From contig NZ_SDWW01000001.1 in the NCBI RefSeq assembly GCF_004168625.1, forward strand, positions 101,501 to 133,500: a DNA stretch of 32,000 nucleotides, read 5' to 3'. This document shows positions 11,773 to 32,000 of the stretch, one piece after another. A program made the position numbers and the translations under genes. This DNA is from Pengzhenrongella frigida (GTDB lineage: Bacteria > Actinomycetota > Actinomycetes > Actinomycetales > Cellulomonadaceae). Numbering within the stretch: the first letter of the stretch is position 1; each line of letters begins with the position of its first letter. The notes beneath the pieces were generated by a model, which saw only the letters and a program-made list of their open reading frames with translations, was not told the origin of the DNA and ran no database searches.

Positions 11773-14442
11773 TCAGTCGGTCACGGCGAGGATGCCGTGG
11801 GCGCCGCGCTCGGCGTCGACCATGCGGTGCGAGACGAACGGGTAGTGGCCGGCCTCGGGCATCACGAGCTCGACGAACCCGCCCTGCGCGGGCTGCAGCC
11901 CGAGGACCTGCGCCCCGCCGGTCTCTCCTGCCCCGGCGCGCGGGCCGCCGAGCTGGTAGGCACCCTCCAGGAAGACCGTGTCGAACTGACCGCCCACGAC
12001 ATGGAAGGCCGAGGACCGGTTGGGCCCGGCGTCGAGCACCCAGATCCGGACCCGCTCCCCCACCCGCGCGGTCAGGGGCCGGCGGTCGTACTGGTTCGGG
12101 TACCCGTTGAACGCCACCGCGTCCGGCGACTCGGCGGCGATCAGGGCGGGGTCGGCGATGTCACCCTGCGGCCCGAAGTACTGCTCGGACTGCACCAGGA
12201 CGTACTCCCGGTCCACCGCCGGCAGGTCGGGCGGGTCGATGATGACCGCCCCGAACATCCCGTTCGCGATGTGCAGGGACATCGGCATGGTGGCGCAGTG
12301 GTACATCCAGATCCCCGAGCGGGTCGCGGTGAACCGATAGGTCAGCTCCTCCCCCGGTTCGATCGTGCGCATCGGCCCGTCGGGGGCGAGCGCACCGGCG
12401 TGGAAGTCGATCGAGTGCCCGATGCTGCCGTCGTTGACGAGCGTGATCTCGAACATGTCCCCGACCCGTCCGCGCAGCACCGGCCCCGGCGCGGTGCCAC
12501 CGAACGTCCAGATCGTCTGACGGACCCCCGGCGCGACCTCGGTCTCGACCTCCTCGACCACCAACCGCTCGCGGTGCACGGTCGGCTCCGCCGCGGGGGC
12601 GAGCACCGCGTCCCGCAGGGCGGCGTCCGGGCCGGGTTCGGCCTGCAGGTCCAGGTCGTCACCCGCAGAGTCAGCACTCGCCGCATCACCTGCATCACCG
12701 GCGTGGCCCGCATCGTGCTCGCTCGCGGTCGACCCGTCGGCGCTGCCGCCGAGGACCACCACGTCGAAGACCATCCCCATCTGCCGGTGCCCGGCGATGG
12801 AGCACCACCCGGCCAGGTCGCGGCCGACGACGCCGACCTCGACCCGTGTGGTCGCGTGCGGCGCGAGTCGGCCCGAGCCGCCGCCGGAGTCCAGGACGAG
12901 ATCGTGCACGCTGGCGTCGGTGTTGGTCACCACGAGCACAAGCTCGTCGCCGGCCTGGACCTGGACCGAGGACGGGACGAAGCGCATGTCCCGGGCCTCG
13001 ACCGCGATCTCGACCACCGTGCCGGACGGCTGGACCCCGTCGGCCGCTGCGGCCCCCAGACCGACGCTCGCCGGGTCGGCCGCGATCCCCGCCACCACCA
13101 CCAGGGCGAGGGCCGCCCCGGCCGCGATCGACTGGCCCCGACGCCCCCGACGCCGCCCCACCTGTTCGGCGGGCACGGCGGCCGGCCCACCGGGCGGCCC
13201 GACGACGGGCATCGGCCCCGCCGGCCGCGGCCGGCGGGAGACCACGGCCACCCGCACGAGCAGCACCGGGGTCCAGATCAGGGCGCCGAGCACGAGCATG
13301 GACGCCCCGACGCGCAGCAGGCTGGGGCCCGGGAGCAGGCACAGCGCCAGGCCACCGTTGACCAGGACGAGCCGCGCGGGACCGCCCCGGTCGGCGATCG
13401 CATTCGTGGCCCGGACCACCGCGGGGCCGCCGCCCAAGATCATCGGCACGAGATAGCTGAGCGACCCGAGCAGCACCTGCGCCGCAAAGCCGACCGCGAG
13501 CGGAGCGAGCAGCGCCCCGACCCGGACCTCGGCAGCCGGCCAGCTCGCCGCGGTGGCCAGCATGACCGTCCACGAGAGCACGGATCCGCACAGCCACACC
13601 CACGCGGCGGCCACGGACCAGGTCGCGAACGACGACGGCGCGCGGCGCCGGGCCTCGCCGACCAGCGGCGCAGCCGTACGGGCCAGCCCCGACGCATAGA
13701 GGCCCACGCCCGCCGCAGCGAGCCCGAGCATGCCGGTCGCGGCGCCGGTCACGACCACGGCCAGCCCCGATCCCAGGGCGACCAGGCCCTGTCGGGCGGC
13801 CCGCTCGGCACCGGGTTCCACCCGCACGCGGAGCATCGTGGGCCACAGCGTGACGAGGGTGCCCATGACGGTCAGCCCGATCCAGCCGAGCAGCATGGTC
13901 GCCAGGTGCGCGACGTACAGGCGCGCGTGCGCCGAGCCGTCGGATCGGGCAAGGAGGACGCCGAGGGCGATCCCGACCGGCAAGGTCAGCGCGGCCGCCA
14001 CGAAGTACGACGTCGTCCAGCCGAGGGAGGAGGCCAGCGCGCGGCGGCCCTGGTCCCAGAGCACGACGGCGTGCCAGCCCACCACCAGGGCGACCAGCAC
14101 CGACCCGATCACCACCACGGTCGACCTGCCGGTGGACATCCCGACGATCGTCGTCACCGCGCCGACCGTGTGTGCCGCGAGGCGGATGGCCTGATCGCGA
14201 TGGCCACCGCGCAGCGGCCGGCGCCGCACCGCCTCGGCGAAGTGGGCGCTCCAGATGAGGATCGCGGCGCTGACCGCACCCAGGAGCAGCAGGTGAACCA
14301 TGAGCCACCGCGCGTCGGGCACCCCGCGGTGCCCGATCGCGACAGCAGCACCCGCGACCAGCCAGCCGAGCACGATGGCGTTCACCCGGAGGTGCCAGCG
14401 GGATCTCACGCGACCACCTCGGCGCCCGACGGCTCGGTGCAT
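11773..14442 (-). CDS. nirK: Copper-containing nitrite reductase (NirK) fused to an N-terminal polytopic membrane domain and a cupredoxin domain
   Basis: This is a single 889-aa ORF. Residues 1-455 contain about 12 hydrophobic helices. Residues 473-563 are a cupredoxin with H513, C547, H552 and M557. Residues 620-889 are the NirK core: GHSIDFH, YHCATMPMSLHIANGM, AFHVVGG and VSHRM. Confidence 0.9.
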   Translation of the reverse strand: MHRAVGRRGGRVRSRWHLRVNAIVLGWLVAGAAVAIGHRGVPDARWLMVHLLLLGAVSAAILIWSAHFAEAVRRRPLRGGHRDQAIRLAAHTVGAVTTIVGMSTGRSTVVVIGSVLVALVVGWHAVVLWDQGRRALASSLGWTTSYFVAAALTLPVGIALGVLLARSDGSAHARLYVAHLATMLLGWIGLTVMGTLVTLWPTMLRVRVEPGAERAARQGLVALGSGLAVVVTGAATGMLGLAAAGVGLYASGLARTAAPLVGEARRRAPSSFATWSVAAAWVWLCGSVLSWTVMLATAASWPAAEVRVGALLAPLAVGFAAQVLLGSLSYLVPMILGGGPAVVRATNAIADRGGPARLVLVNGGLALCLLPGPSLLRVGASMLVLGALIWTPVLLVRVAVVSRRPRPAGPMPVVGPPGGPAAVPAEQVGRRRGRRGQSIAAGAALALVVVAGIAADPASVGLGAAAADGVQPSGTVVEIAVEARDMRFVPSSVQVQAGDELVLVVTNTDASVHDLVLDSGGGSGRLAPHATTRVEVGVVGRDLAGWCSIAGHRQMGMVFDVVVLGGSADGSTASEHDAGHAGDAGDAASADSAGDDLDLQAEPGPDAALRDAVLAPAAEPTVHRERLVVEEVETEVAPGVRQTIWTFGGTAPGPVLRGRVGDMFEITLVNDGSIGHSIDFHAGALAPDGPMRTIEPGEELTYRFTATRSGIWMYHCATMPMSLHIANGMFGAVIIDPPDLPAVDREYVLVQSEQYFGPQGDIADPALIAAESPDAVAFNGYPNQYDRRPLTARVGERVRIWVLDAGPNRSSAFHVVGGQFDTVFLEGAYQLGGPRAGAGETGGAQVLGLQPAQGGFVELVMPEAGHYPFVSHRMVDAERGAHGILAVTD

Positions 14443-14976: not shown

Positions 14977-15687
14977 ATGGGGCCTCGCCCGGCGGTCGCC
15001 ATCGCTGCTTCCGGGTCGACCCCGTCGCTGTCGACCTCGCGTCGCGCGCTGCTGGCGACCCTGCGCTCGCAACCCGGACCCGTCACCCTCACCGCCCTGG
15101 GCGCAGCCACCGGGCTGCACGTCAACACCGTGCGCGAGCACCTGGCCGCCCTCACCGACGCGGGTCTGGTGACGCGCGGCCGCGCCGCGCCGCACGGCCG
15201 GGGGCGTCCGGCTGCGACCTACACGGCGTCGACCGACCCGGCGACGGGGTCCGAGCCGGCCCCCGTCAGCGCGGAGTACGCCGGGCTCGCGGCCGCGCTC
15301 GCCTCCACGATCCACCGCACGAGCAGCTCCCCCAGCCACGACGCCACCGTCGCGGGCACCGAGTGGGGCCGGGAGCTCGCCCGCAACCGGCCAGGCCCTC
15401 CCCCCGCCGACGACGTCGATCCGCGCGGCCGGGTCGTGCAGCTCCTCGCCGACCTCGGCTTCGCCCCGCGGCCCGCCGACGGGCCGCCCGCCGTGCTGCT
15501 CACCCGCTGCCCGCTGCTGGAGACCGCGCACGCCTACCCCGACGTGGTCTGCGCCGTGCACCTCGGCATCGTGCGCGGCGCGCTCGGCGAGTTCGGCGCC
15601 GACCCCGCGGGCGCCGAGCTGCACCCGTTCTCGGATCCCGGCGCCTGCCGGCTCGACCTGGCCCGCACCGACCGGGTCCCGCGATGA
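14977..15687 (+). CDS. Winged-HTH (ArsR/SufR-like) transcriptional regulator with a C-terminal Cys3His motif, paralog 1
   Basis: This is the last 236 aa of ORF 11797..15687, from the ATG at 14977. The HTH reads LTALGAATGLHVNTVREHLAALTDAGLV...GRGRPAATY. The C-terminus has C178-x13-C192-x2-H195-x28-C224. It is divergent from the DUF2249-nirK pair. Confidence 0.75.
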   Translation: MGPRPAVAIAASGSTPSLSTSRRALLATLRSQPGPVTLTALGAATGLHVNTVREHLAALTDAGLVTRGRAAPHGRGRPAATYTASTDPATGSEPAPVSAEYAGLAAALASTIHRTSSSPSHDATVAGTEWGRELARNRPGPPPADDVDPRGRVVQLLADLGFAPRPADGPPAVLLTRCPLLETAHAYPDVVCAVHLGIVRGALGEFGADPAGAELHPFSDPGACRLDLARTDRVPR

Positions 15688-16463
15688 CCGCGACCGCACC
15701 GACCCACGGCGGCTCTCAGCGGAGCCGGCCGCCGAGCCCCGCCAAGCGCCGGCTGCGAAAGTACCTCCCGCCGCAGCACGGCGCCTGGGCGATGCTGCTC
15801 GTCCCGTTCCTGGTCGCGCTGGTCACCGCCGGCGTCGACTGGGTGCAGGTCCCGCTGCTCCTCGCCTGGCTCGCCGGGTACCTGCTGTCGTACTACGCGT
15901 TCCTCGCCCTCAAGACCCGACGCCCGGCGCGGGTGCTCCCCCAGCTGCGCCTGTACGCGGCCCTCACGGTGCCCGCCGCCCTGGTGGTGGTCGTCCTGCG
16001 ACCGGCGGTCCTCTGGTTCGCGCCCGCCTACGCCGCCCTGCTCGCGGTGAACGCCTGGTACGCCTGGCACCACCGCGATCGCGCCCTGACCAACGACCTC
16101 GCCTCGGTGGTCCAGGGCTGCCTGATGGTCCCGGTCGCCGCCACCGTGGCGGGGGTGTCACCGGTCGCCGTGCTCGAGCCGTTCGTGGTCGTGCTGCTGT
16201 ACTTCCTCGGCACCGTGCTGTTCGTCAAGACGATGATCCGCGAGCGCGGCGACGAGAGCTTCCTGCGCGGATCGATCGCCTTCCACGTGGTGGCGGCGGT
16301 CCTGGCCGGTCTCCTCGCCTGGCCGTTGGCCATCCTGTTCGTCTGGTTCGCCGTGCGTGCGGCCTGGCTGCCGCGCTACGCGATGACGCCGAAGTCCGTC
16401 GGGTTCGTGGAGATCGGCAACTGCGTGGCGCTCCTCGGAGCGATCGCCCTGCTCGCCGGGTAG
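15684..16463 (+). CDS. YwiC-like family membrane protein
   Basis: This is the C-terminal 259 aa of ORF 14949..16463. It carries KYLPPQHGAWAMLLVPFLVALV plus about 8 TM helices. Its ATG overlaps the regulator's stop as ATGA. Confidence 0.75.
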   Translation: MTATAPTHGGSQRSRPPSPAKRRLRKYLPPQHGAWAMLLVPFLVALVTAGVDWVQVPLLLAWLAGYLLSYYAFLALKTRRPARVLPQLRLYAALTVPAALVVVVLRPAVLWFAPAYAALLAVNAWYAWHHRDRALTNDLASVVQGCLMVPVAATVAGVSPVAVLEPFVVVLLYFLGTVLFVKTMIRERGDESFLRGSIAFHVVAAVLAGLLAWPLAILFVWFAVRAAWLPRYAMTPKSVGFVEIGNCVALLGAIALLAG

Positions 16464-16487: not shown

Positions 16488-18461
16488 TCAGCGCCGGGCG
16501 GGTTCGGTGGCCCGCCTGGCGTTGTTCCGCACGAAGGCCACGGGGGCGCCGGCCGCGGCGGGGGTGTGGCTCTGCGTGCGGCTGCGGAGCAGTCGCATGG
16601 CGTTGAGGATGACGACCAGGACCGACACCTCGTGCACGAGCATCCCGGCCGCCATCGTGACCCCGCCGACCAGGACCCCGAGCAGCAGCAGCGACACGGT
16701 GGCCAGTGCGACGGCGATGTTCTGGTGCATGTTCGCCACCGTCCGGCGCGCGAGCCGGATGGCCTCGGGCAGCTTCAGCAGGTTGTCGGCCATCAGGGCG
16801 ATGTCGGCCGTCTCGAGGGCGACGGCCGATCCGGCCGCGCCCATGGCGACCCCGAGGTCGGCGACCGCCAGCGCGGGGGCGTCGTTGACGCCGTCGCCCA
16901 CCATGGCCACGACGTAGCCCGCGGCCTGCAGCTCACGGACGACATCGAGCTTGTCCTGCGGCAGCAGCCCGGCCCGCACCTCGTCGACGCCGGTGGCCTC
17001 ACCCACGGCGACGGCGACCGGCATGGCGTCCCCCGTGAGCATGACGACCTTGCGCACGCCCGCCCGGCGCAGCTCGCCGACCATCTGCGCGGCGTCGGGG
17101 CGGACCTCGTCGGCGACGGCGACCACGCCGACCACGACGCCGTCGACCGCCACGATCATCGGGGTGCGGCCCGCGACGGCGAGGTCATGGGCCACCTGGC
17201 CGCTCCCCCGGTCGTCAGCCACCCCGAACTGGGTCAGCAGGGCGAGGTTGCCGACGAGCAGGCGATGTCCCCCGCTGGTCGCCGTGATGCCCTTGCCCGG
17301 GATGGACTCGGTGACCTCGGGCAGCCGGTCGGTGGGCAGCCCCTCGGAGCGGGCCGCGTCCAAGACCGGGCGCGCCAGGGGGTGCTCGGAGCCCGCCTCG
17401 GCCAGCGCGGCCCAGCCCAGGACGGCGGCGCGATCCGCGTCCGGGCCGAGCACGACGACGTCGGTCAGCCGCGGGCGACCGCGAGTGAGCGTGCCGGTCT
17501 TGTCGACGGCGACCGCGGTGATCTTCGCCGACTTCTCCAGGTACTCCCCGCCCTTGATCAAGATGCCGTCCTTGGCCGCGCGGCCGATGCCGGCCACGAT
17601 CGAGACCGGGATGGAGATCACCATCGCCCCCGGGCAGCCGATCACGAGCAGGGTCAGCGCCAGGACGACGTCCCCGGTGAGCACCCCCGCCACGACCGCC
17701 AGCACGATGATCGCGGGCGTGTACCAGGCGGAGAACCGGTCCATAAAACGCTGCGTCCGGGCCTTGGCGTCCTGCGCCTCCTCGACGCGATGGATGATCC
17801 GCGCGAGCGTCGTGTCGGCCCCCACCCCGGTCGCCCTCACCTGCAGCAGGCCGCCACGCGAGACCGTGCCGGCGAACACCTGGTCCCCGACCGCCTTATC
17901 CACCGGGATCGACTCCCCGGTGATCGAGGCCTGGTCGACGGCACCGGTCCCGGCGAGGACCTCGCCGTCGACCGGCACCTTCGCGCCGTTCTTGACCAGC
18001 ACCGTCTCGCCCATGGCGACAGCGGCGGCGGCCACCTCGACCTGGCCGCCGTCGCGCAGGACGACGGCGACGTCCGGTGCGACGGCGACCAGCTCAGCCA
18101 GGGCAGACCGGGTCCGGCTCAGCGTCGCCTGCTCCAGGGCGTGGCCGACGGCGAACAGGAACGTCACCGCGGCCGCCTCCCAGTACTGACCGATCACCAC
18201 CGCACCGATGGACGCCACGGCGACGAGCAGGTCGATGCCGATCACCCGCGCCAGCAGCGCGCGGACCGCGTGCAGGGCGATCGGGGTCCCCGCCACGACG
18301 GCGGCCAGGGCCATCACCGTGTCGCCGGCGACCCCGGCCCCGGCCAGGCCGGTGATGGCGGCCGAGCCCGCGATGAGCAGCCCGCTCACCGCGGGGATCC
18401 CCCACCGGCCGTGCAACCCCGCGTGCAGCTCGGTGTGCAACCTGGTGTGCAGCGTTCTCAT
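16488..18461 (-). CDS. Heavy-metal translocating P1B-type ATPase (atypical CPG transmembrane motif, no fused HMA domain)
   Basis: This is ORF 16488..18857, trimmed to MRTLHTRLHT with an AAGGAG Shine-Dalgarno. It carries TGES, DKTGTLT, SEHPLA and GDGVNDAPAL. TM4 reads LLVIGCPGAMVISIP. It has eight predicted TM helices. Confidence 0.9.
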   Translation of the reverse strand: MRTLHTRLHTELHAGLHGRWGIPAVSGLLIAGSAAITGLAGAGVAGDTVMALAAVVAGTPIALHAVRALLARVIGIDLLVAVASIGAVVIGQYWEAAAVTFLFAVGHALEQATLSRTRSALAELVAVAPDVAVVLRDGGQVEVAAAAVAMGETVLVKNGAKVPVDGEVLAGTGAVDQASITGESIPVDKAVGDQVFAGTVSRGGLLQVRATGVGADTTLARIIHRVEEAQDAKARTQRFMDRFSAWYTPAIIVLAVVAGVLTGDVVLALTLLVIGCPGAMVISIPVSIVAGIGRAAKDGILIKGGEYLEKSAKITAVAVDKTGTLTRGRPRLTDVVVLGPDADRAAVLGWAALAEAGSEHPLARPVLDAARSEGLPTDRLPEVTESIPGKGITATSGGHRLLVGNLALLTQFGVADDRGSGQVAHDLAVAGRTPMIVAVDGVVVGVVAVADEVRPDAAQMVGELRRAGVRKVVMLTGDAMPVAVAVGEATGVDEVRAGLLPQDKLDVVRELQAAGYVVAMVGDGVNDAPALAVADLGVAMGAAGSAVALETADIALMADNLLKLPEAIRLARRTVANMHQNIAVALATVSLLLLGVLVGGVTMAAGMLVHEVSVLVVILNAMRLLRSRTQSHTPAAAGAPVAFVRNNARRATEPARR

Positions 18462-18511
18462 GATCGGGCTCTCCTTCGGCAGGTCGACAGGTTCCGGGCT
18501 GGGCCGCGCGG

Positions 18512-18790
18512 TCAGAACGCCGCGGGGGCGGAGGTGTACCCGGCCTTGGCGACCGCGGCCACCAGCGCCTCGACCCCGACGACCTGCGGGTCGTGGTCGA
18601 TCTCGATGCGACCCGAGGCGAAGTGCACCGCGACGGCGTCGACCCCGGCCACGCGGCCGACCTGCTTCTCGATCTTCGCCACGCACGACGGGCACGAGAA
18701 CCCCTCGGCCCGCAGGATCGTGCGGGTGGTCGCTGTGGGGTTGGTGGCGGTGGGGTTGGTGGCGGTGGGGTTGGTGGCGGTGGTGCTCAT
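18512..18790 (-). CDS. Heavy-metal-associated (HMA) domain metallochaperone
   Basis: This is ORF 18512..18895, trimmed to MSTTATNPTATNPTATNPTATTRTILRAEGFSCPSCVAKIEKQVGRVAGVDAVAV.... It has the CxxC HMA fold pattern. It ends 50 nt upstream of the ATPase. Confidence 0.85.
   Translation of the reverse strand: MSTTATNPTATNPTATNPTATTRTILRAEGFSCPSCVAKIEKQVGRVAGVDAVAVHFASGRIEIDHDPQVVGVEALVAAVAKAGYTSAPAAF
18735..18779 (-). repeat. Perfect 15-bp x3 tandem repeat inside the HMA gene (encodes the TNPTA x3 N-terminal tail)
   Basis: gtggggttggtggcg is repeated three times without a mismatch. Confidence 0.95.
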
Positions 18791-18992
18791 GATCGGACCT
18801 CTTTCGATGGTGCGGCTCGCCCCGTTCGAGGCGACTGACCCTGACGTTTCCAGGCACCCGGCGAAGCGAACATGACGTGGGTCAATCAACGGCACATCGG
18901 CGTGGGATCGACGTGCGTCGGCGGGGTCGGGGACCTCGCCGGGGAGCGCGCCGGACCGGGGCGATACGCTCGCGCTGAGCCCAGGAGTCGAT

Positions 18993-19838
18993 GTGAACCC
19001 CCCGCACGCCAGCCCCCAGCCCGACGGCCATCAGCACGACGAGGCCGGACCGACCAGCCCGCCGTCGGCCCGTCGGCGGATCCCGTTGCGGGCGACCTGC
19101 GCCGAACCGCACCAGTGCCCGGCGCCGGTCCGGATGCGCGTGCTGGGCCACGTCTCGCTCTTCGCCGGGCTCTCGACCACCGAGCTCGAGGCCATCGACG
19201 CCCGGATGGTCTCGCTCTCCTGGGCCGCCGGGGACGTGCTGTTCTCCGCCGGAGCGCCTGCGGACCACCTCTACGTCCTGGCCTCGGGCCGCGTGAAGCT
19301 CTCCCGGCCGACCGTCGTCGGGCGGGAGATCGTCGTCGACCTGCTCACCCCCGGCGACCTCTTCGGGACCTTGACGGCCCTCGGGGACCCGACCTATCCG
19401 GAGACGGCGGAGGCTCTCACCACGACGTGCGCCCTGCAGATCGACCCCGCCGCCTTCCGCGCGGTGCTCACCGAGCACCCCCCGGTCGCCTTGCGGGTGC
19501 TCGACGACGTCGCGGCCCGCCTCACCCGGGCCCGCTCCGACCTGGGCCACCACTCCACGGACACCGTGGCGCAACGCGTGGCCGCCACGCTTCTGCGCCT
19601 GGCGGACAAGCTCGGCCAGGAGCGCGCCGGCGACGGCGGCACGCTGCTGCAGATCCCGCTCTCCCGCGCCGACCTCGCTGGGATGACCAGCTCGACTCCC
19701 GAGTCCGTGTCCCGCGCCATGAGCCAGCTGCGCAAGGACCGGATCATCGACTCGGGGCGCCGCTGGACCGCCGTCCTGGACCGACCCCGCCTGGCCGACG
19801 TCGCCGCGGGCGCCGATGGACCGGCAGCCCCGGCCTGA
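18993..19838 (+). CDS. Crp/Fnr family regulator, FNR-like (N-terminal Cys pair, E--SR recognition helix)
   Basis: The GTG at 18993 is preceded by AGGAG. A cNMP-binding-like beta-roll is present (LFAGLSTTELEAIDARM...GDLFG). The HTH reads LSRADLAGMTSSTPESVSRAMSQLRKD. The candidate ligand residues are C36, H40, C42 and C146. Confidence 0.85.
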   Translation: MNPPHASPQPDGHQHDEAGPTSPPSARRRIPLRATCAEPHQCPAPVRMRVLGHVSLFAGLSTTELEAIDARMVSLSWAAGDVLFSAGAPADHLYVLASGRVKLSRPTVVGREIVVDLLTPGDLFGTLTALGDPTYPETAEALTTTCALQIDPAAFRAVLTEHPPVALRVLDDVAARLTRARSDLGHHSTDTVAQRVAATLLRLADKLGQERAGDGGTLLQIPLSRADLAGMTSSTPESVSRAMSQLRKDRIIDSGRRWTAVLDRPRLADVAAGADGPAAPA

Positions 19839-19911: not shown

Positions 19912-20259
19912 CTACCGCGCCCGGGCGGGCTCGGCGGTGCGCTCCACGCCCGTGACGGTGGTGAGCAGGAACACCGAGTCCGCCTCCGCCAGCACGGCGT
20001 GACGCAGGTGCGTGAGCAGGGCGACCTCGCCGGCGACCAGGGCGGCGGTCTCCACCCCGGTGACGCGCAGCCGGCCCACCAGGACCTGCAGGCTCGCCGC
20101 GTGGGGGGAGTTGTGCTCGGCGAGCTCGGTGCCGGCCACCAGCGCGATCAGGGTCTGCCGCAAGGGTCCGTCGTGCAGCAGCAGCTCGGCGCTGCGGCCG
20201 TGGTCCGCCGCACGGGCGGCGTCGAGGTGGGACTGGGCGAGAAGGTTGAGATTGGCCAC
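19912..20259 (-). CDS. Small cupin-domain protein (115 aa)
   Basis: The GTG at 20259 is preceded by GGAGGA. It carries HGRSAELLLHDGPLRQTLIALVAGTELAEHNSPHAASLQVLVGRLRV, a single cupin barrel pattern. Confidence 0.65.
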   Translation of the reverse strand: MANLNLLAQSHLDAARAADHGRSAELLLHDGPLRQTLIALVAGTELAEHNSPHAASLQVLVGRLRVTGVETAALVAGEVALLTHLRHAVLAEADSVFLLTTVTGVERTAEPARAR

Positions 20260-26120: not shown

Positions 26121-27404
26121 ATGGCCGAGGGTCAAGGACGACTCGAGGGGCAGGGCTCGAGCCCGCTCGCAGCAACCACGCCCGGAAGCCCCACGCCGGC
26201 CGGCGACCAGTCGCCGTCGGCCACCCCGGCCCTCGCGAGCCGGATGCTCGTGCTCGCCATGCTCGGCTTCATGGTGAACTTCTGGGCCTGGGCCCTGATC
26301 AGCCCGCTCGGCGCCGCCTATCGCGACCAGCTCGGCCTGACCGTCTTCCAGCAAGCGGTCCTCGTGGCCGTCCCGGTCATCGTCGGGTCGCTCGGCCGGA
26401 TCCCGGTCGGGGCGCTGACGGACCGGGTCGGGGCGCGGATCATGTTCCCCGCCATCAGCATCCTGACCGTCCTGCCGGTGCTCTACGTCGGGCTGGTCGC
26501 CGAGAGCTTCGCGGCGATGCTGGTCGGCGGGTTCTTCCTCGGGCTGGGCGGCACCGCGTTCGCGATCGGGGTCCCGCTGGTCAACTCCTGGTACCCGCCC
26601 GTGCGCCGGGGTACCGCGCTGGGGATCTTCGGGATCGGCATGGGCGGCACGGCGATCTCCGCATTCACCACCGTCCGGCTGACCGACAGCCTCGGCCCCG
26701 AGGCGCCGTTCCTCATCGTGGCCGGCGTGCTGACGGTGTACGCGATCGTCTCGGCGCTGCTGATCCGCGACGCCCCCGGGCGCGTCCGTCCGACCGGCTC
26801 CTTCCTGGCCCGGACCTGGGCGACCGCCAAGATCCCCGCCACGGCCCAGCTGTCGTTCGTGTACGCGGTGGGCTTCGGCGGGTTCGTCGCGTTCAGCGTG
26901 TACCTGCCGACCTACCTGATCAACGCGTTCGACCTGGTGCCGAACGACGCCGCGATGCGCACCGCCGGGTTCGTGGTGCTGGCCGTCGCGGCTCGTCCGG
27001 TCGGCGGCTGGCTCTCCGACCGGTACAACCCGGTGAGCGTGCTCGTCGTGGACTTCACCGCGGCGGCGGTCCTGGCCGGCCTGGCCGCGCTCGAGCTGCC
27101 CCTGGTCCCGGTCGGCACGATCGCGTTCCTCGGCCTCGCCGCGGCGCTGGGCTCGTCCGCCGGGGCGACGTTCGCGCTCGTGGCGATCCTCGCGCCGAAG
27201 ACCAAGGTGGGTGCGGTCACGGGCATCGTCGGCGCCGCCGGTGGGCTCGGCGGCTTCGTGCCGCCGCTGGTGATGGGCGCCGTCTTCAGCGCCGTCGGCG
27301 ACTACTCCATCGGACTCGCCCTGCTCGCCGTAGTCTCGTTGAGCGCGGCGCTGTTCACCCGCGGCCCCCTGCGGCGCTCCGCCCGGGCGGTCGCGACCGT
27401 CTAG
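26121..27404 (+). CDS. narK: MFS nitrate/nitrite transporter (NarK/NasA family)
   Basis: This is ORF 26109..27404, with the start preferred at the ATG at 26121 (GAGG 6 nt upstream). It carries FMVNFWAWALISPLG...GSLGRIPVGALTDRVGAR...GLGGTAFAIGVPLVNSWYPPVRRGTALGIFGIGMGGTA, the NarK signature glycine-rich motifs. Confidence 0.88.
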   Translation: MAEGQGRLEGQGSSPLAATTPGSPTPAGDQSPSATPALASRMLVLAMLGFMVNFWAWALISPLGAAYRDQLGLTVFQQAVLVAVPVIVGSLGRIPVGALTDRVGARIMFPAISILTVLPVLYVGLVAESFAAMLVGGFFLGLGGTAFAIGVPLVNSWYPPVRRGTALGIFGIGMGGTAISAFTTVRLTDSLGPEAPFLIVAGVLTVYAIVSALLIRDAPGRVRPTGSFLARTWATAKIPATAQLSFVYAVGFGGFVAFSVYLPTYLINAFDLVPNDAAMRTAGFVVLAVAARPVGGWLSDRYNPVSVLVVDFTAAAVLAGLAALELPLVPVGTIAFLGLAAALGSSAGATFALVAILAPKTKVGAVTGIVGAAGGLGGFVPPLVMGAVFSAVGDYSIGLALLAVVSLSAALFTRGPLRRSARAVATV

Positions 27405-27453
27405 CTCGACCGGACCGCCAGCTCGACCGGAAAGCCAGCTCGACCGGAACGCT
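27403..27453. repeat. 17-bp x3 tandem direct repeat (AGCTCGACCGGA + 5 variable nt) between narK and narG
   Basis: The units are 27403-19, 27420-36 and 27437-53, each with an invariant 12-nt core. A degenerate extra TCGACCG follows at 27454-60. The array starts inside the narK stop codon and ends 36 nt before the narG GTG. Confidence 0.85.
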
Positions 27454-27488
27454 TCGACCGTCGAACTTCTCGAAAGAGGGACCCGCTC

Positions 27489-30400
27489 GTGACACTGCAG
27501 AACAACCCGCCGAAGCCCGCCTCCCGGATGGACGACGACGTCACCGAGGCCCTGCTCAAGACCCGGCGGTTCTTCCAGAAGAAGGAGGTGTCGCCCGACC
27601 TGCGCACGCTGCACCAGATCGGGGGGCGCGACGCCGACACGTTCTACCGCGACCGGTGGAGCCACGACAAGGTGGTCCGTTCGACGCACGGGGTCAACTG
27701 CACCGGGTCCTGCTCGTGGAAGGTGTACGTCAAGGACGGCATCATCACCTGGGAGACCCAGCAGACCGACTACCCCTCGACCGGCCCGGACCGCCCCGAG
27801 TACGAGCCCCGGGGCTGCCCGCGCGGGGCCGCGTTCTCCTGGTACACCTACTCCCCCACCCGCGTGCGCTACCCCTACGTGCGCGGGGTGCTGCTGGAGA
27901 TGTACCGCGAGGCGCGTGCCCGCCTGGGTGAGCCGGTCGCCGCGTGGGCCGACATCATGGCCGACCCGGTCCGCTCGGCGCGCTACAAGGCGGCCCGCGG
28001 CAAGGGCGGGCTGGTGCGCGCGACCTGGGACGAGGCCACCGAGATGATCGCCGCGGCCCACGTGCACACCATCAAGGAGCACGGCCCGGACCGGATCGCC
28101 GGGTTCTCCCCGATCCCCGCGATGTCGATGGTGTCCCACGGGGTCGGGTCGCGGTTCTACTCGCTGCTCGGCGGCGCGATGCTGTCGTTCTACGACTGGT
28201 ACGCCGACCTGCCGGTCGCCTCCCCGCAGGTGTTCGGCGACCAGACCGACGTGCCGGAGTCCGGCGACTGGTGGGACGCGGGCTACCTGATCATGTGGGG
28301 CTCCAACGTCCCGGTGACCCGCACCCCCGACGCGCACTGGATGGTCGAGGCGCGGTACCGCGGCCAGAAGGTCATCGCCGTCTCCCCCGACTACGCCGAC
28401 AACGTCAAGTTCGCCGACGAGTGGCTCGCCCCCGCCCCCGGCACGGACGGCGCGCTCGCGATGGCCATGGGGCACGTGGTGCTCAAGGAGTTCTTCGTCG
28501 ACCGCACCACGGAGTACTTCGACGGGTACGTGCGCAAGTTCACCGACCTGCCGTTCCTGGTCACCCTCGAGCAGCAGGGCGACCACTACGTCCCGGCCAA
28601 GTTCCTCACCGCGGCCGACCTCGGCGAACGCAGTGAGCACGCCGAGTTCAAGACCGTGCTGCTCGACGACGCGACCGGCGAGGCCGTCGTGCCGAACGGC
28701 TCGCTGGGCTTCCGCTACGGCACCGAGGGCGAGGGCAAGTGGAACCTCGACCTCGGCGACACCGTCCCGCGCCTGAGCGCCGACGGGGCCGGCAGCGGCG
28801 TCGCGGCGATCGACCTGCCGCGGTTCGACGCCGTCGACGGGTCCGCCGCGGTGATCGCCCGCGGCGTGCCGACCCGCGTGGTCGGCGGCCACCTCGTGAC
28901 CACCGTGTTCGACCTGCTCCTGGCCCAGTACGGCGTCGGCCGCCCGGGCCTGCCCGGCACCTGGGCGACCGGGTACGACGACGCCTCCAGCCCGTGCACC
29001 CCGGCGTGGCAGGAGACCATCACCGGTGTCCCGGCAGCGAAGGCCGAACGGATCGGCCGGGAGTTCGCGGCCAACGCCGAGGAGTCCAAGGGTCGCTCGA
29101 TGATCATCATGGGCGCCGGGGTGAACCACTGGTTCCACGCCGACACGATCTACCGCGCCTTCCTCACGCTCACCACGCTGTGCGGCACGCAGGGCGTCAA
29201 CGGCGGCGGCTGGGCGCACTACGTCGGGCAGGAGAAGGTCCGCCCGCTGACCGGCTTCAACCAGTACGCGAACGCGCTCGACTGGTCGCGGCCGCCGCGG
29301 CACATGATCCAGACCGCGTACTGGTACCTGCACTCCGACCAGTACCGCTACGACACGTTCAGCGCGGACGCGCTCGCCTCCGGCAAGGCCAAGGGCATGT
29401 TCTCCGGCATGGCGATGGTCGACGTGCTGGCCAAGTCCGCCCGGCTGGGCTGGATGCCGTCGTACCCGACGTTCGACCGCAGCTCGCTCACCCTGGCCGA
29501 CGACGCCGACGCCGCCGGGGTCCCGGTGGACCAGTACGTCCCCGCGGCGCTCAAGGACGGCTCGCTGAAGTTCGCCGGCGAGGACCCCGACGCGCCGACC
29601 AACTACCCGCGCCTGCTCACGGTCTGGCGCTCGAACCTGCTGGGCAGCTCGGGCAAGGGCAACGAGTACTTCCTCAAGCACCTGCTCGGCACCGACCACG
29701 CCGTGCGCGCGACCGAGGCCGAGGCGGTCAACCGCCCGCGCGACGTCACCTGGCGCGACGACGCCCCGATCGGCAAGCTCGACCTGCTGCTCACCCTCGA
29801 CTTCCGGATGACCAGCACCACGCTGTTCTCCGACATCGTGCTGCCGGCCGCCACCTGGTACGAGAAGTACGACCTGTCCAGCACCGACATGCACCCCTTC
29901 GTGCACTCGTTCAACCCCGCCATCGCCCCGCCGTGGCAGACCCGCACCGACTTCGACGCGTTCCACACGATCGCCAAGGCGTTCTCGGCCATGGCGACCG
30001 AGCACCTCGGCGTCCGCAAGGACGTCGTGGCGATGCCCCTGCTGCACGACACTCCCGACGCGATGGCGACGCCGTCGGGCCGGGTCCTGGACTGGAAGTT
30101 CGGCGAGTGCGAGCCCATCCCGGGCAAGACCATGCCCAAGCTCGTCGTCGTCGAGCGCGACTACGGCGCCGTCGCGGAGAAGCTCGGGGCGCTCGGCCCG
30201 CTGGCCGACACCCTCGGGGCGACCACCAAGGGGATCACCTACGACCTGACCAAGCCGATCGAGTACCTGGGCCACAAGAACGGCCGGATCCGCGGCGGCG
30301 TCGCGGACGGTCGCCCGTCGCTGCAGCGCGACATCCACGTGTGCGAGTCGATCCTGGCGCAGTCGGGCACCACGAACGGTCACCTGGCCACCGCGGGCTT

Positions 30401-31190
30401 CCGGGCCCTGGAGAAGCGCACCGGCCGACCGCTGGTCGATCTGGCGGCCGAGAACGAGGGCAAGCAGGTCACGTTCGCCGACACCCAGGCCGCCCCGATG
30501 CCGGTGCTCACCTCGCCGGAGTGGTCCGGCTCGGAGACCGGCGGGCGGCGGTACTCGCCGTTCACCATCAACGTCGAGCGGCTCAAGCCGTGGCACACCC
30601 TGACCGGGCGGATGCACTTCTTCCTCGACCACGACTGGATCACCGAGCTGGGCGAGCAGCTGCCGATCTTCCGGCCGCCGCTGAGCATGACGGCCCTGTT
30701 CGACGAGCCCGAGCTCGGCGACACCGGCGAGCTCGGCATCACCGTGCGCTACCTGACCCCGCACTCGAAGTGGTCGATCCACTCCGAGTACCAGGACAAC
30801 CTGCTGATGCTCAGCCTGTCGCGCGGCGGGCCGGGGATCTGGATGAGCGAGGTGGACGCGGCGAAGATCGGCGTCAAGGACAACGACTGGATCGAGGCCG
30901 TCAACCGCAACGGCGTGGTCGTGGCCCGGGCGATCGTCTCCTACCGGATGCCCGAGGGCACGGTGTACATGTACCACGCGCAGGACCGCCTGATCGATGT
31001 GCCCAAGACCGAGACCTCCGGCAAACGCGGCGGCATCCACAACTCCCTGACCCGGATCCTGATGAAGCCGAGCCACCTCATCGGCGGCTACGCGCAGCTG
31101 ACCTTCGCGTTCAACTACCTCGGCCCCACCGGCAACCAACGCGACGAGGTGACGGTCATCCGTCGTCGCTCGCAGACTGTGGAGTACTAG
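27489..31190 (+). CDS. narG: Respiratory nitrate reductase alpha subunit
   Basis: The 1233-aa product has a vestigial twin-arginine region ([11 protein letters not shown]). It has the FS0 ligand motif [30 protein letters not shown]. NarG-like sequence continues throughout. Confidence 0.97.
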   Translation: [1233 protein letters not shown]

Positions 31191-31192
31191 AC

Positions 31193-32000
31193 ATGCGCGT
31201 CATGGCCCAGATGTCGATGGTGATGAACCTCGACAAGTGCATCGGCTGCCACACCTGCTCGGTCACCTGCAAGCAGGCGTGGACCAACCGGACCGGAACC
31301 GAGTACGTGTGGTTCAACAACGTCGAGACCCGCCCCGGGCAGGGCTACCCGCGCACCTACGAGGACCAGGAGAAGTGGGAGGGCGGCTGGACGCTGACCA
31401 AGCGCGGACGCCTGCGACTGAAGGCCGGCGGCAGGATCAAGAACCTCGCCACGATCTTCTCCAGCCCCAAGCTGCCCTCGATCGAGGACTACTACGAGCC
31501 GTGGACCTATGACTACGAGACGCTGACGAACGCGCCCCTGCAGGAGCACAGCCCGGTCGCCCGGCCGATGTCGCTGATCACCGGCAAGGACATGAACATC
31601 ACCTGGAGCGCGAACTGGGACGACGACCTCGGCGGCTCCGAGCTGCTGGCGGCCGACCCGATCCTCGCCAAGGTGTCGGACAAGGTGAAGCTCGCCTACG
31701 AGCAGACGTTCATGTTCTACCTGCCGCGCATCTGCGAGCACTGCCTGAACCCGTCCTGCGCCGCGTCGTGCCCGTCGGGGGCGATCTACAAGCGCGCCGA
31801 GGACGGCATCGTGCTGGTCGACCAGGACAAGTGCCGCGGCTGGCGCAAGTGCGTCACCGGGTGCCCGTACAAGAAGATCTACTTCAACCACAAGACCGGC
31901 AAGGCCGAGAAGTGCACGTTCTGCTTCCCGCGCATCGAGGTCGGCCTGCCCACGGTGTGCGCCGAGACGTGCGTCGGCCGGCTGCGGTACATCGGGCTCG
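31193..32000 (+). CDS. narH: Respiratory nitrate reductase beta subunit (5' part, runs off the right edge)
   Basis: The ATG at 31193 lies 2 nt after the narG stop. The frame reads MRVMAQMSMVMNLDKCIGCHTCSVTCKQAWTNRTGTEYVWFNNVETRPG...CEHCLNPSCAASCPSGAIYKR...CRGWRKCVTGCPYKK. It is absent from the ORF track because it is truncated. Confidence 0.95.
   Translation, partial: MRVMAQMSMVMNLDKCIGCHTCSVTCKQAWTNRTGTEYVWFNNVETRPGQGYPRTYEDQEKWEGGWTLTKRGRLRLKAGGRIKNLATIFSSPKLPSIEDYYEPWTYDYETLTNAPLQEHSPVARPMSLITGKDMNITWSANWDDDLGGSELLAADPILAKVSDKVKLAYEQTFMFYLPRICEHCLNPSCAASCPSGAIYKRAEDGIVLVDQDKCRGWRKCVTGCPYKKIYFNHKTGKAEKCTFCFPRIEVGLPTVCAETCVGRLRYIGL

Follow-up and report, generated by a model that had tools for sequence, protein, structure and literature searches.

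Gene organization of the hma-pump locus

The stretch of DNA considered here (the window), 32,000 nucleotides (nt) from contig NZ_SDWW01000001.1 of Pengzhenrongella frigida (positions 101,501 to 133,500, forward strand), encodes a P1B-type ATPase with a CPG motif, a stand-alone HMA metallochaperone, and a divergently oriented regulator of the Crp/Fnr family. Genes in the window, which has a GC content of 72-73%, were called with a codon-position log-odds caller. The most similar locus is found in Pengzhenrongella phosphoraccumulans (93% identity).

The pump gene (16488-18461, minus strand) encodes a protein of 657 amino acids (aa) that starts with MRTLHT, 8 nt downstream of a GAAGGAG ribosome-binding site. 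Its Pfam domains are E1-E2_ATPase and Hydrolase, and no fused metal-binding HMA domain is detected by Pfam, in agreement with an initial annotation of this DNA that had been made from the sequence alone. The catalytic motifs TGES, DKTGT, SEHPL, and GDGVNDAP are all present in the translation, and the score of 549 bits against TIGR01525 lies above the cut-off of 346. An AlphaFold model of the pump (pLDDT 86) contains the eight transmembrane helices MA, MB, and M1 to M6 (residues 21-40, 43-70, 76-89, 93-125, 235-262, 265-274/278-297, 563-598, and 603-626), with M4 being broken at the CPG motif (residues 275-277). By its motifs, its HMM matches, and this eight-helix model, the pump is a P1B-type (heavy-metal) P-type ATPase. 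Foldseek matches are P1B structures with TM-scores of up to 0.82; these scores track the conformational state, so that subclasses are not separable by them. The best Foldseek E-value is obtained with ZntA and the best match in a sequence search of the PDB is sCoaT (2.7e-99), with identities of 36-38%.

The CPG motif in M4 consists of Cys276-Pro277-Gly278 (17628-17636, minus strand; context VIGCPGAMVISIP). Its codons TGC CCG GGG are exactly those given in the initial annotation, and a change from GGG to TGY would require two base changes. The last helix, M6 (GMLVHEVSVLVVILNAMRLL), carries the signature G606-M-L-V-H610-E611-V-S613-V (16620-16646, minus strand), of which His, Glu, and Ser are common to HE-type pumps. 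At the N-terminus, the previously noted His ladder TLHT-RLHT-ELHA-GLHG, or (xLHx)4, is present (18408-18455, minus strand) and is encoded by a weak 12-nt tandem repeat; residues 2-16 are helical in the AlphaFold prediction. LH units are missing in 83 of 120 homologues, and up to seven occur in the others.

The HMA gene (18512-18790, minus strand; Pfam HMA, 9.3e-13) encodes a metallochaperone of 92 aa with the motif FSCPSC, the SCPSC part of which is located at 18683-18694. The perfect (TNPTA)3 repeat of this protein had also been recognized before and had been placed at its tail. It forms residues 6-20 of a Thr-rich N-terminal head and is encoded by a 15-nt tandem repeat (18727-18783, minus strand; 3.8 copies with 95% matches according to TRF). 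The repeat is missing in the closest relatives (loci L013-L016), and the Thr/Ser-rich head of HMA homologues differs in length and sequence at every locus. Both the LH ladder and the TNPTA repeat are strain-level local expansions.

On the opposite strand, a gene for a Crp/Fnr-family regulator resembling FLP proteins follows (18993-19838, plus strand; Pfam cNMP_binding and HTH_Crp_2). The intergenic region contains a predicted FNR/FLP-type operator with the sequence TTGACCCACGTCAT (18872-18885, minus strand), which is common to the divergent hma-pump and crp promoters.

Phylogeny and ligand signature of the CPG pumps

The assignment of metals to P1B pumps rests on the transmembrane tripeptide. 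For the seven accepted subtypes, the M4 motifs CPC, CPC, CPH, SPC, PCP, SCA, and CSC are listed in a 2026 review (PMC13460109). CPG is not among these seven motifs and thus lies outside this scheme, and a full-text literature search retrieved no relevant paper on a CPG motif in P-type ATPases. Automatic annotation labels CPG pumps as cadmium or zinc exporters.

The initial annotation had considered a strain-specific mutation, in which case orthologues should have CPC at this position. CPG is found in 119 of the 120 best homologues, which belong to many actinobacterial genera and share 72-94% identity with the pump, and the last helix contains HE[VAI]S in nearly all of these proteins. Since orthologues retain CPG, the motif is a family signature rather than a strain mutation. 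In a HMMER search of 1.84 billion representatives, 35 of the best 150 matches carry CPG; none of these 35 sequences has an N-terminal CxxC motif, and their length is 593-673 aa with the exception of a few fragments. The placement among the P1B subgroups that the initial annotation had called for was addressed with FastTree: in a tree of 151 sequences, all 32 CPG proteins of full length group together in a single clade (support 0.999). Its neighbours in the tree are pumps with CPC/HE[AG]SA, SPC/HEGST (P1B-4), CSC (P1B-7), and CPC/DxG (P1B-2), and the support for the sister group is 0.16. The clade is large and comprises proteins from Actinomycetota, Bacillota, and Proteobacteria. CPG itself is present in 32 of 32 representatives, and the full signature reads GCPGA in M4 and G-M-[LF]-[VI]-H-[EQ]-x-S-[VI] in M6, combined with the lack of a fused metal-binding domain. 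CPG is thus characteristic of the clade and is neither a mutation nor a product of chance. The Streptococcus mutans pump ZccE, which had been considered as a further CPG pump, has the motif SPC.

The M6 signature contains a Met residue, Met607 in the pump, which is conserved in 31 of the 32 clade members, while V, I, A, or L occupies this column in the other classes tallied. These column tallies suggest that a sulfur ligand was shifted from M4, where the second Cys is replaced, to the Met of M6, and a particular metal preference may follow from this shift. A pairwise HMMER alignment had suggested that Met607 corresponds to the CopA ligand Met717; this assignment was dropped because the multiple alignment places His610 in that column, together with the Asp of ZntA.

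In keeping with the initial annotation, which had described the motif as deviating from the well-studied CPC, CPH, and SPC types, the pump differs from the established classes at further ligand positions. P1B-1 pumps are characterized by CPC, YN in M5, and MxxSS in M6, where the pump has CPG, T588/V589, and HEVSV. All 46 P1B-2 representatives have Lys and Asp at the respective M5 and M6 columns, which are occupied by Val589 and His610 in the pump. With P1B-4 (SPC, HEGxT), CPG and HEVSV have only the residues H, E, and S in common. The motifs of P1B-5, P1B-6, and P1B-7 (PCP, SCA, and CSC) are not present in the pump either, and the representatives with CSC are not part of the CPG clade.

The genome of P. 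frigida further encodes two CopA pumps of the CPC type, which contain fused HMA domains and show C, Y/N, and M/S in the aligned ligand columns, and two CopB-like pumps. The CopB-like pumps (C79:2029-4587 and C67:33901-36036) carry CPD in M4 (ITCPDALGLATP), another tripeptide beyond the usual list of CPC, CPH, and SPC, and the N-terminus of one of these two pumps is long and rich in His. Two more P1B pumps are encoded at C103:2464-4626 and C22:69285-71717, one with AGACGIA in M4 and a last helix containing HVGSES and the other with TPCP (PCP type). In total, the genome encodes seven P1B pumps (two CopA, two CPD, the CPG pump, and the two further ones) in addition to KdpB.

Distribution and mobility of the three-gene module

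Clustering of gene neighbourhoods over 79 related actinobacterial loci reveals a conserved module, in which the HMA gene adjoins the pump gene in 72-75 of the 79 loci and a Crp/Fnr-family gene does so in 51-53. The motif FSCPSC is found in 70 of 75 HMA proteins. In Bacillota genomes with the pump (from the genera Desulfitobacterium, Paenibacillus, Thermoanaerobacterium, Halanaerobium, Fredinandcohnia, Selenihalanaerobacter, and Proteiniborus), the pump gene has an HMA neighbour in seven of seven and a Crp/Fnr neighbour in six of seven cases, and the HMA motif is [F/L][S/T]CP[S/T/D]C throughout. The same genes are also found on the Leuconostoc plasmid pLEUM1 in the order pump, HMA, Dps, Crp/Fnr, and VIT1; the encoded pump, in which the motifs are GCPGALVIG and GMLVHEAS, shares 42% identity with the pump in the window.

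Genes for a cupin and a zinc-type alcohol dehydrogenase-like protein are recurrent extra neighbours. The window contains a small cupin-like gene (19912-20259, minus strand) belonging to a cluster that recurs in 13 loci (cluster 5) and having no match in Pfam. A separate downstream cluster of Cupin_2 genes occurs in 11 loci and is not represented in the window.

Other neighbours of the module are related to stress responses and anaerobic respiration. RIC/ScdA-hemerythrin and rubrerythrin genes are found in Desulfitobacterium, an iron superoxide dismutase gene (Fe-SOD) in Thermoanaerobacterium, the above-mentioned Dps and VIT1 genes on pLEUM1, narHJI in Fredinandcohnia, and NirK, qNOR, and Nar genes in the window. 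Because such genes accompany the module across phyla, stress-coupled metal export fits better than the delivery of a cofactor. The nature of these neighbours, in particular Dps, VIT1, RIC, rubrerythrin, and SOD, would also suit an exporter of Fe(II) or another hard metal of the PfeT/CtpD kind, which would clear iron freed from Fe-S clusters by nitric oxide (NO) or peroxide. The HE-x-S helix that is common to P1B-4 pumps and the position of sCoaT as the best PDB sequence match point in the same direction. For Fe(II), however, an HMA chaperone with CxxC and a Met restricted to the clade would be unusual, and P1B-4 pumps form a separate clade, so that this function appears very improbable.

In Fredinandcohnia onubensis (L097, 1-6613), the HMA-pump-Crp module is located immediately 3' of narH-narJ-narI. 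A parallel in the window is the YwiC-like gene that abuts the pump gene, since a gene of this kind is a neighbour of the Bacillus nar locus. In the model denitrifier Paracoccus denitrificans, a 1.73-Mb replicon (L100, 5659-8872) carries a gene for an FSCPSC HMA protein together with one for a CPG pump of 53% identity, the motifs of which are ACPGALVIS and GMLIHQLSV.

The module is mobile. Identical pump proteins, annotated as MULTISPECIES, occur across genera of Micrococcales, and some copies are flanked by genes for a resolvase and a Mu-type transposase. The pump is encoded on 17 plasmids of actinobacterial, proteobacterial, and haloarchaeal origin. Relatives of a streptococcal CPG pump (54-56% identity) are encoded on 447 plasmids, mostly from Enterococcus, Lactococcus, Leuconostoc, and Listeria, with the motif having been checked on pLEUM1 alone. 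Among 301 sampled genomes of the class, three encode the pump. This sporadic and mobile distribution would be expected for a resistance cassette for Zn, Cd, Co, or Pb that hitch-hikes in a denitrification island without a functional tie to it. Such a cassette would also be in line with the score of the pump against the Cd/Zn/Co-type model TIGR01512 (487 bits), which is above the cut-off, with sCoaT and ZntA as the nearest solved relatives, and with a gene near one copy (L028) that resembles an ArsC-type phosphatase by eye, as judged without a domain search. Several features argue against it. The Lys in M5 and the DxG in M6 of ZntA-type pumps are lacking, as are the SPC and HEGST of P1B-4. Furthermore, the conserved module contains no regulator of the MerR, ArsR, or CsoR type, its partner being an FNR-type activator with a site at position -41.5, and the approximately fivefold enrichment of NirK described below would need another explanation. 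Taken together, a hitch-hiking resistance cassette is considered quite unlikely.

Several transposon-borne copies (in Georgenia, Isoptericola, Cellulomonas denverensis, and Oerskovia) have about 1.2 kb between the HMA and pump genes (L019:8792-9997, likewise L028-L033 and L017). In L017, this gap contains a second HMA-like gene (LFCPSC), while no convincing gene was called in the other gaps, and a search of Rfam gave no match. Upstream of the regulator gene, two mobile copies (L019:5766-7520 and L033:5761-7524) encode a fused cytochrome b561/molybdopterin oxidoreductase resembling MsrQ-MsrP and also a protein of 73 aa (MISTIYTVAGMTT...) that resembles an HMA fold and lacks CxxC.

The regulator and its operator

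The initial annotation had recognized the neighbouring regulator as FNR-like and had missed both the FNR-type box and the connection to FLP systems. In the window, the box is located 88 nt upstream of the HMA start and is the sole intergenic match at no more than one mismatch. Of 75 loci, 57 have the pattern TTGA[CT]-N4-[AG]TCA[AT] ahead of the HMA gene, where 0.025 would be expected from shuffled sequences. Nearly all of the 87 matches in 1.4 Mb of loci are located upstream of an HMA or pump gene or of a divergent crp gene, and none is found upstream of nirK in any locus. The Firmicute version of the box is TTGAT-N4-ATCAA. An alignment of 52 distinct promoters by their boxes shows a conserved TA-n-CGT hexamer that begins 29.5 nt away from the centre of the box. 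From this distance, the box is placed at -41.5 relative to the predicted start site, which is the spacing of class II FNR promoters. At the window locus, the predicted -10 hexamer is AAACGT (18844-18849, minus strand), the first T of the family consensus TAACGT being replaced by A. A scan of the window, whose DNA has 73% GC, for E. coli-type promoters and terminators gave no match.

The regulator has Cys36, His40, Cys42, and Cys146, which are kept in 105-121 of 121 aligned sequences (120 homologues and the window protein). Cys146 is invariant, and Cys36, His40, and Cys42 are conserved in all sequences that include the N-terminus. Some loci encode a second, more distant type of regulator with a single Cys just ahead of VPIF, and in Firmicute regulators a central Cys is combined with one or two Cys at the N-terminus, to which a His is often added. 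The FLP-type regulator of pLEUM1 shows the two-Cys FLP pattern and has 26% identity to the regulator in the window (E 6e-26). Judged by these properties, the window regulator has the FLP-type Cys pattern in a variant form with an added His40, and its box lies at the predicted position of -41.5. An interpretation as a new metal-sensing Crp protein was set aside after the FLP arrangement had been confirmed on pLEUM1.

FLP proteins have been described for Lactococcus lactis (orfX-orfY-flpA/flpB) and Lacticaseibacillus casei (Gostick 1998, 1999; Scott 2000, as cited in PMC7162690 and PMC5039431). In these two articles, a redox switch of DNA binding, by a disulfide or a labile cluster, is reported for L. 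casei FLP and L. lactis FlpA. According to PMC7162690, FLP binds DNA once an intramolecular disulfide has formed, a flpA flpB double mutant of Lactococcus is hypersensitive to H2O2, and both the targets of FLP and its metal are regarded as unsettled. For the Lactococcus system, it has been proposed that a metal such as Zn is imported to shield thiols during oxidative stress. If this applied to the pump, it would have to work against the direction of the well-documented P1B pumps, which is export from the cytoplasm, and against the implication of a cytoplasmic chaperone feeding the pump, which is export as well. Import is thus extremely unlikely.

Relation to NirK and denitrification

The further neighbours of the pump gene are as the initial annotation had described them. 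On one side, these are a YwiC-like gene (15684-16463, plus strand) and a gene for a membrane-fused copper nitrite reductase, NirK (11773-14442, minus strand), with Cu-oxidase and cupredoxin domains and a match to TIGR02376. The window also encodes ArnR-type NO sensors. A narK-like gene, narG, and narH (26244-31996) follow the qNOR operon, so that the window is a complete nitrate-nitrite-NO respiration island with the pump mid-way. About 2.3 kb past the right end of the window, a second NirK-like gene is found (C38:135849-137168), the product of which shares 56% identity with the membrane NirK over residues 423-874 of the latter and consists of cupredoxin and NirK parts without a membrane domain.

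An association of the pump with membrane NirK is evident at two levels. The NirK gene is located within 10 kb of the pump gene in 11 of the 79 loci, representing six genera, and in Cryobacterium (L053) nirK, crp, hma, pump, cupin, and alcohol dehydrogenase genes are arranged on one strand, with nirK and crp overlapping. At the level of genomes, NirK is encoded by 19 of the 25 pump genomes in which it is not linked to the pump and by each of the three pump genomes in the class sample. With an identical query and threshold, the background in the class is 44 of 301 genomes, a lower bound owing to the stricter first look used. NirK is thus present in about 80% of pump genomes versus about 15% of the background, an approximately fivefold difference in raw counts that are not phylogenetically corrected and come from related, non-independent genomes.

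It had been suggested in the initial annotation that the pump is a dedicated metal supplier for NirK or the cupredoxin. In the corresponding scenario, the pump would export Cu(I) slowly, as FixI/CcoI pumps do, and load the extracytoplasmic domains of NirK and the cupredoxin, with the CPSC protein acting as its CopZ. Besides the linkage and co-occurrence, this could be supported by the ligand set of Cys, Met, and His, which would chemically suit Cu(I), and by a PDB search with the HMA protein, in which CopZ proteins are the top single-domain matches; their scores of about 40 bits compared to 31-34 bits for ZiaA, ZntA, and CadA do not pinpoint the metal. The converse association is weak, however, as only 3 of the 44 NirK genomes encode the pump and 41 do not. 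The module is also common in anaerobic Firmicutes and on plasmids of lactic acid bacteria, and the flanks of 4-5 kb that were read on both sides contain no nirK in Thermoanaerobacterium, Halanaerobium, Desulfitobacterium, and the Leuconostoc plasmids, those genomes not having been searched for NirK. In addition, nirK lacks the operator box in all loci, the score against the Cu-type model TIGR01511 is 373.6 and thus below the cut-off of 397, the YN and MxxSS of CopA are lacking, and the genome already encodes two CPC CopA and two CopB-like pumps. A copper-loading function of this kind is therefore regarded as unlikely. Of the original suggestion, the statistical tie between pump and NirK is borne out; a dedicated supply of NirK with copper is not supported. 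As an alternative, the initial annotation had considered that CPG may indicate another substrate, which would be compatible with the present data. The link to NirK in actinobacteria is real but indirect. An earlier study on nitrogen-oxide regulons (Rodionov 2005) mentions no ATPase.

A proposed function in redox-coupled metal export

On balance, the hma-pump operon is probably an actinobacterial FLP-type metal module that is activated by an FNR-type regulator and serves metal export coupled to redox state or NO. A connection of metal export with redox or nitrogen-oxide stress is suggested by the conserved partner of the pump, which is an FNR-like activator and not a metal sensor. In the proposed mechanism, the HMA and CPG ATPase genes would constitute a single operon. 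The divergently encoded regulator, with Cys36-x3-His40-x-Cys42 and Cys146, would bind the TTGACCCACGTCAT palindrome and, positioned at -41.5, would cause class II activation rather than repression of hma-pump. The signal would probably be redox, oxygen, or NO and would be sensed at the Cys/His site, so that the protein is probably not a classical metal sensor. The FSCPSC chaperone may then pass a thiophilic cation to the pump, where Cys276 of M4 and Met607, His610, and Glu611 of M6 are the predicted binding site, and ATP-driven export would follow. In P. frigida, the system would most likely limit metal in the cytoplasm during the production of nitrite and NO.

Several observations weigh against this interpretation. 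An adjacent Crp/Fnr gene is lacking in about a third of the actinobacterial loci, and in Paracoccus a divergent gene that is LysR-like by eye, as judged without a domain search, lies beside the pump gene, and neither a Crp/Fnr gene nor an FNR-type box is found there. The regulator may be a general one rather than dedicated to the pump, as its family also occurs away from any pump (Georgenia soli), and in a pairwise alignment its Cys146 is two residues off the central Cys of the pLEUM1 regulator. The hma-pump copy in the window may be weakly expressed since it has AAACGT in the place of the family hexamer TAACGT. Finally, work by Scott et al. from 2000 is said to have found zinc depletion in a Lactococcus flp double mutant, which would fit uptake better than export.

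Beyond redox-coupled export by an FLP-type module, a more far-reaching hypothesis can be put forward tentatively, although it is more doubtful: the CPG pumps might constitute an eighth P1B subfamily with its own ligand geometry (Cys ahead of the Pro, Met and His in M6) and CPxC chaperone and with an FNR-like redox/NO switch, which would export Cu(I) or Zn set free by nitrosative or oxidative damage and thereby make membrane NirK safe in actinobacteria.

Comparison with known P1B pumps and FLP systems

Among the P1B pumps, the P1B-4 proteins (sCoaT, 7QBZ; CzcP; PfeT; CtpD) resemble the CPG pump in having His-Glu-x-Ser in M6, eight helices, a Glu and GxxLE in M2 (E95 in the pump), and no fused HMA domain. 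In contrast to these proteins, the CPG pump has its Cys before (CPG) and not after (SPC) the Pro, an extra Met one turn ahead of the His, and Val or Ile in the place of the Thr of HEGST. It is further distinguished from P1B-4 by its dedicated CxxC chaperone and by belonging to a separate clade. Pumps of the ZntA/CadA type (P1B-2) are similar with respect to the TIGR01512 match and an identity of 37-38% to ZntA. Unlike them, the CPG pump has no second Cys in M4, no Lys in M5, no Asp-x-Gly in M6, and no fused HMA domain. The combination of a separate CxxC chaperone with a pump, and in some genomes the proximity to a cuproenzyme gene, is shared with the CopZ/CopA and FixI/CcoI systems (P1B-1). 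These differ by the presence of CPC, YN, and MxxSS and by TIGR01511, for which the CPG pump remains below the cut-off. In CopZ/CopA systems, the regulator is CsoR, CopY, or CueR and not FNR-like, and P. frigida has CopA pumps of its own.

The greatest resemblance is to the FLP loci, which likewise encode a Crp/Fnr-family regulator with N-terminal and central Cys near an HMA gene and which have an FNR-type box at activator distance and a CPSC HMA protein; an adjacent CPG pump has been confirmed on Leuconostoc pLEUM1. Differences are that the Dps-like orfY is absent from the window and the actinobacterial loci, while pLEUM1 has Dps, and that the window regulator has Cys-x3-His-x-Cys and Cys146 where FLP proteins show a two-Cys pattern. 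The box is a GC-rich variant (TTGAC-N4-GTCAA), and the module in the window is tied to genes for NirK and NO respiration. The hma-pump pair can thus be regarded as an actinobacterial variant of the known, little-studied FLP system, with the regulator motif and the association with membrane NirK being new, and its co-occurrence with membrane NirK in actinobacteria provides a handle on the role of this neglected system.

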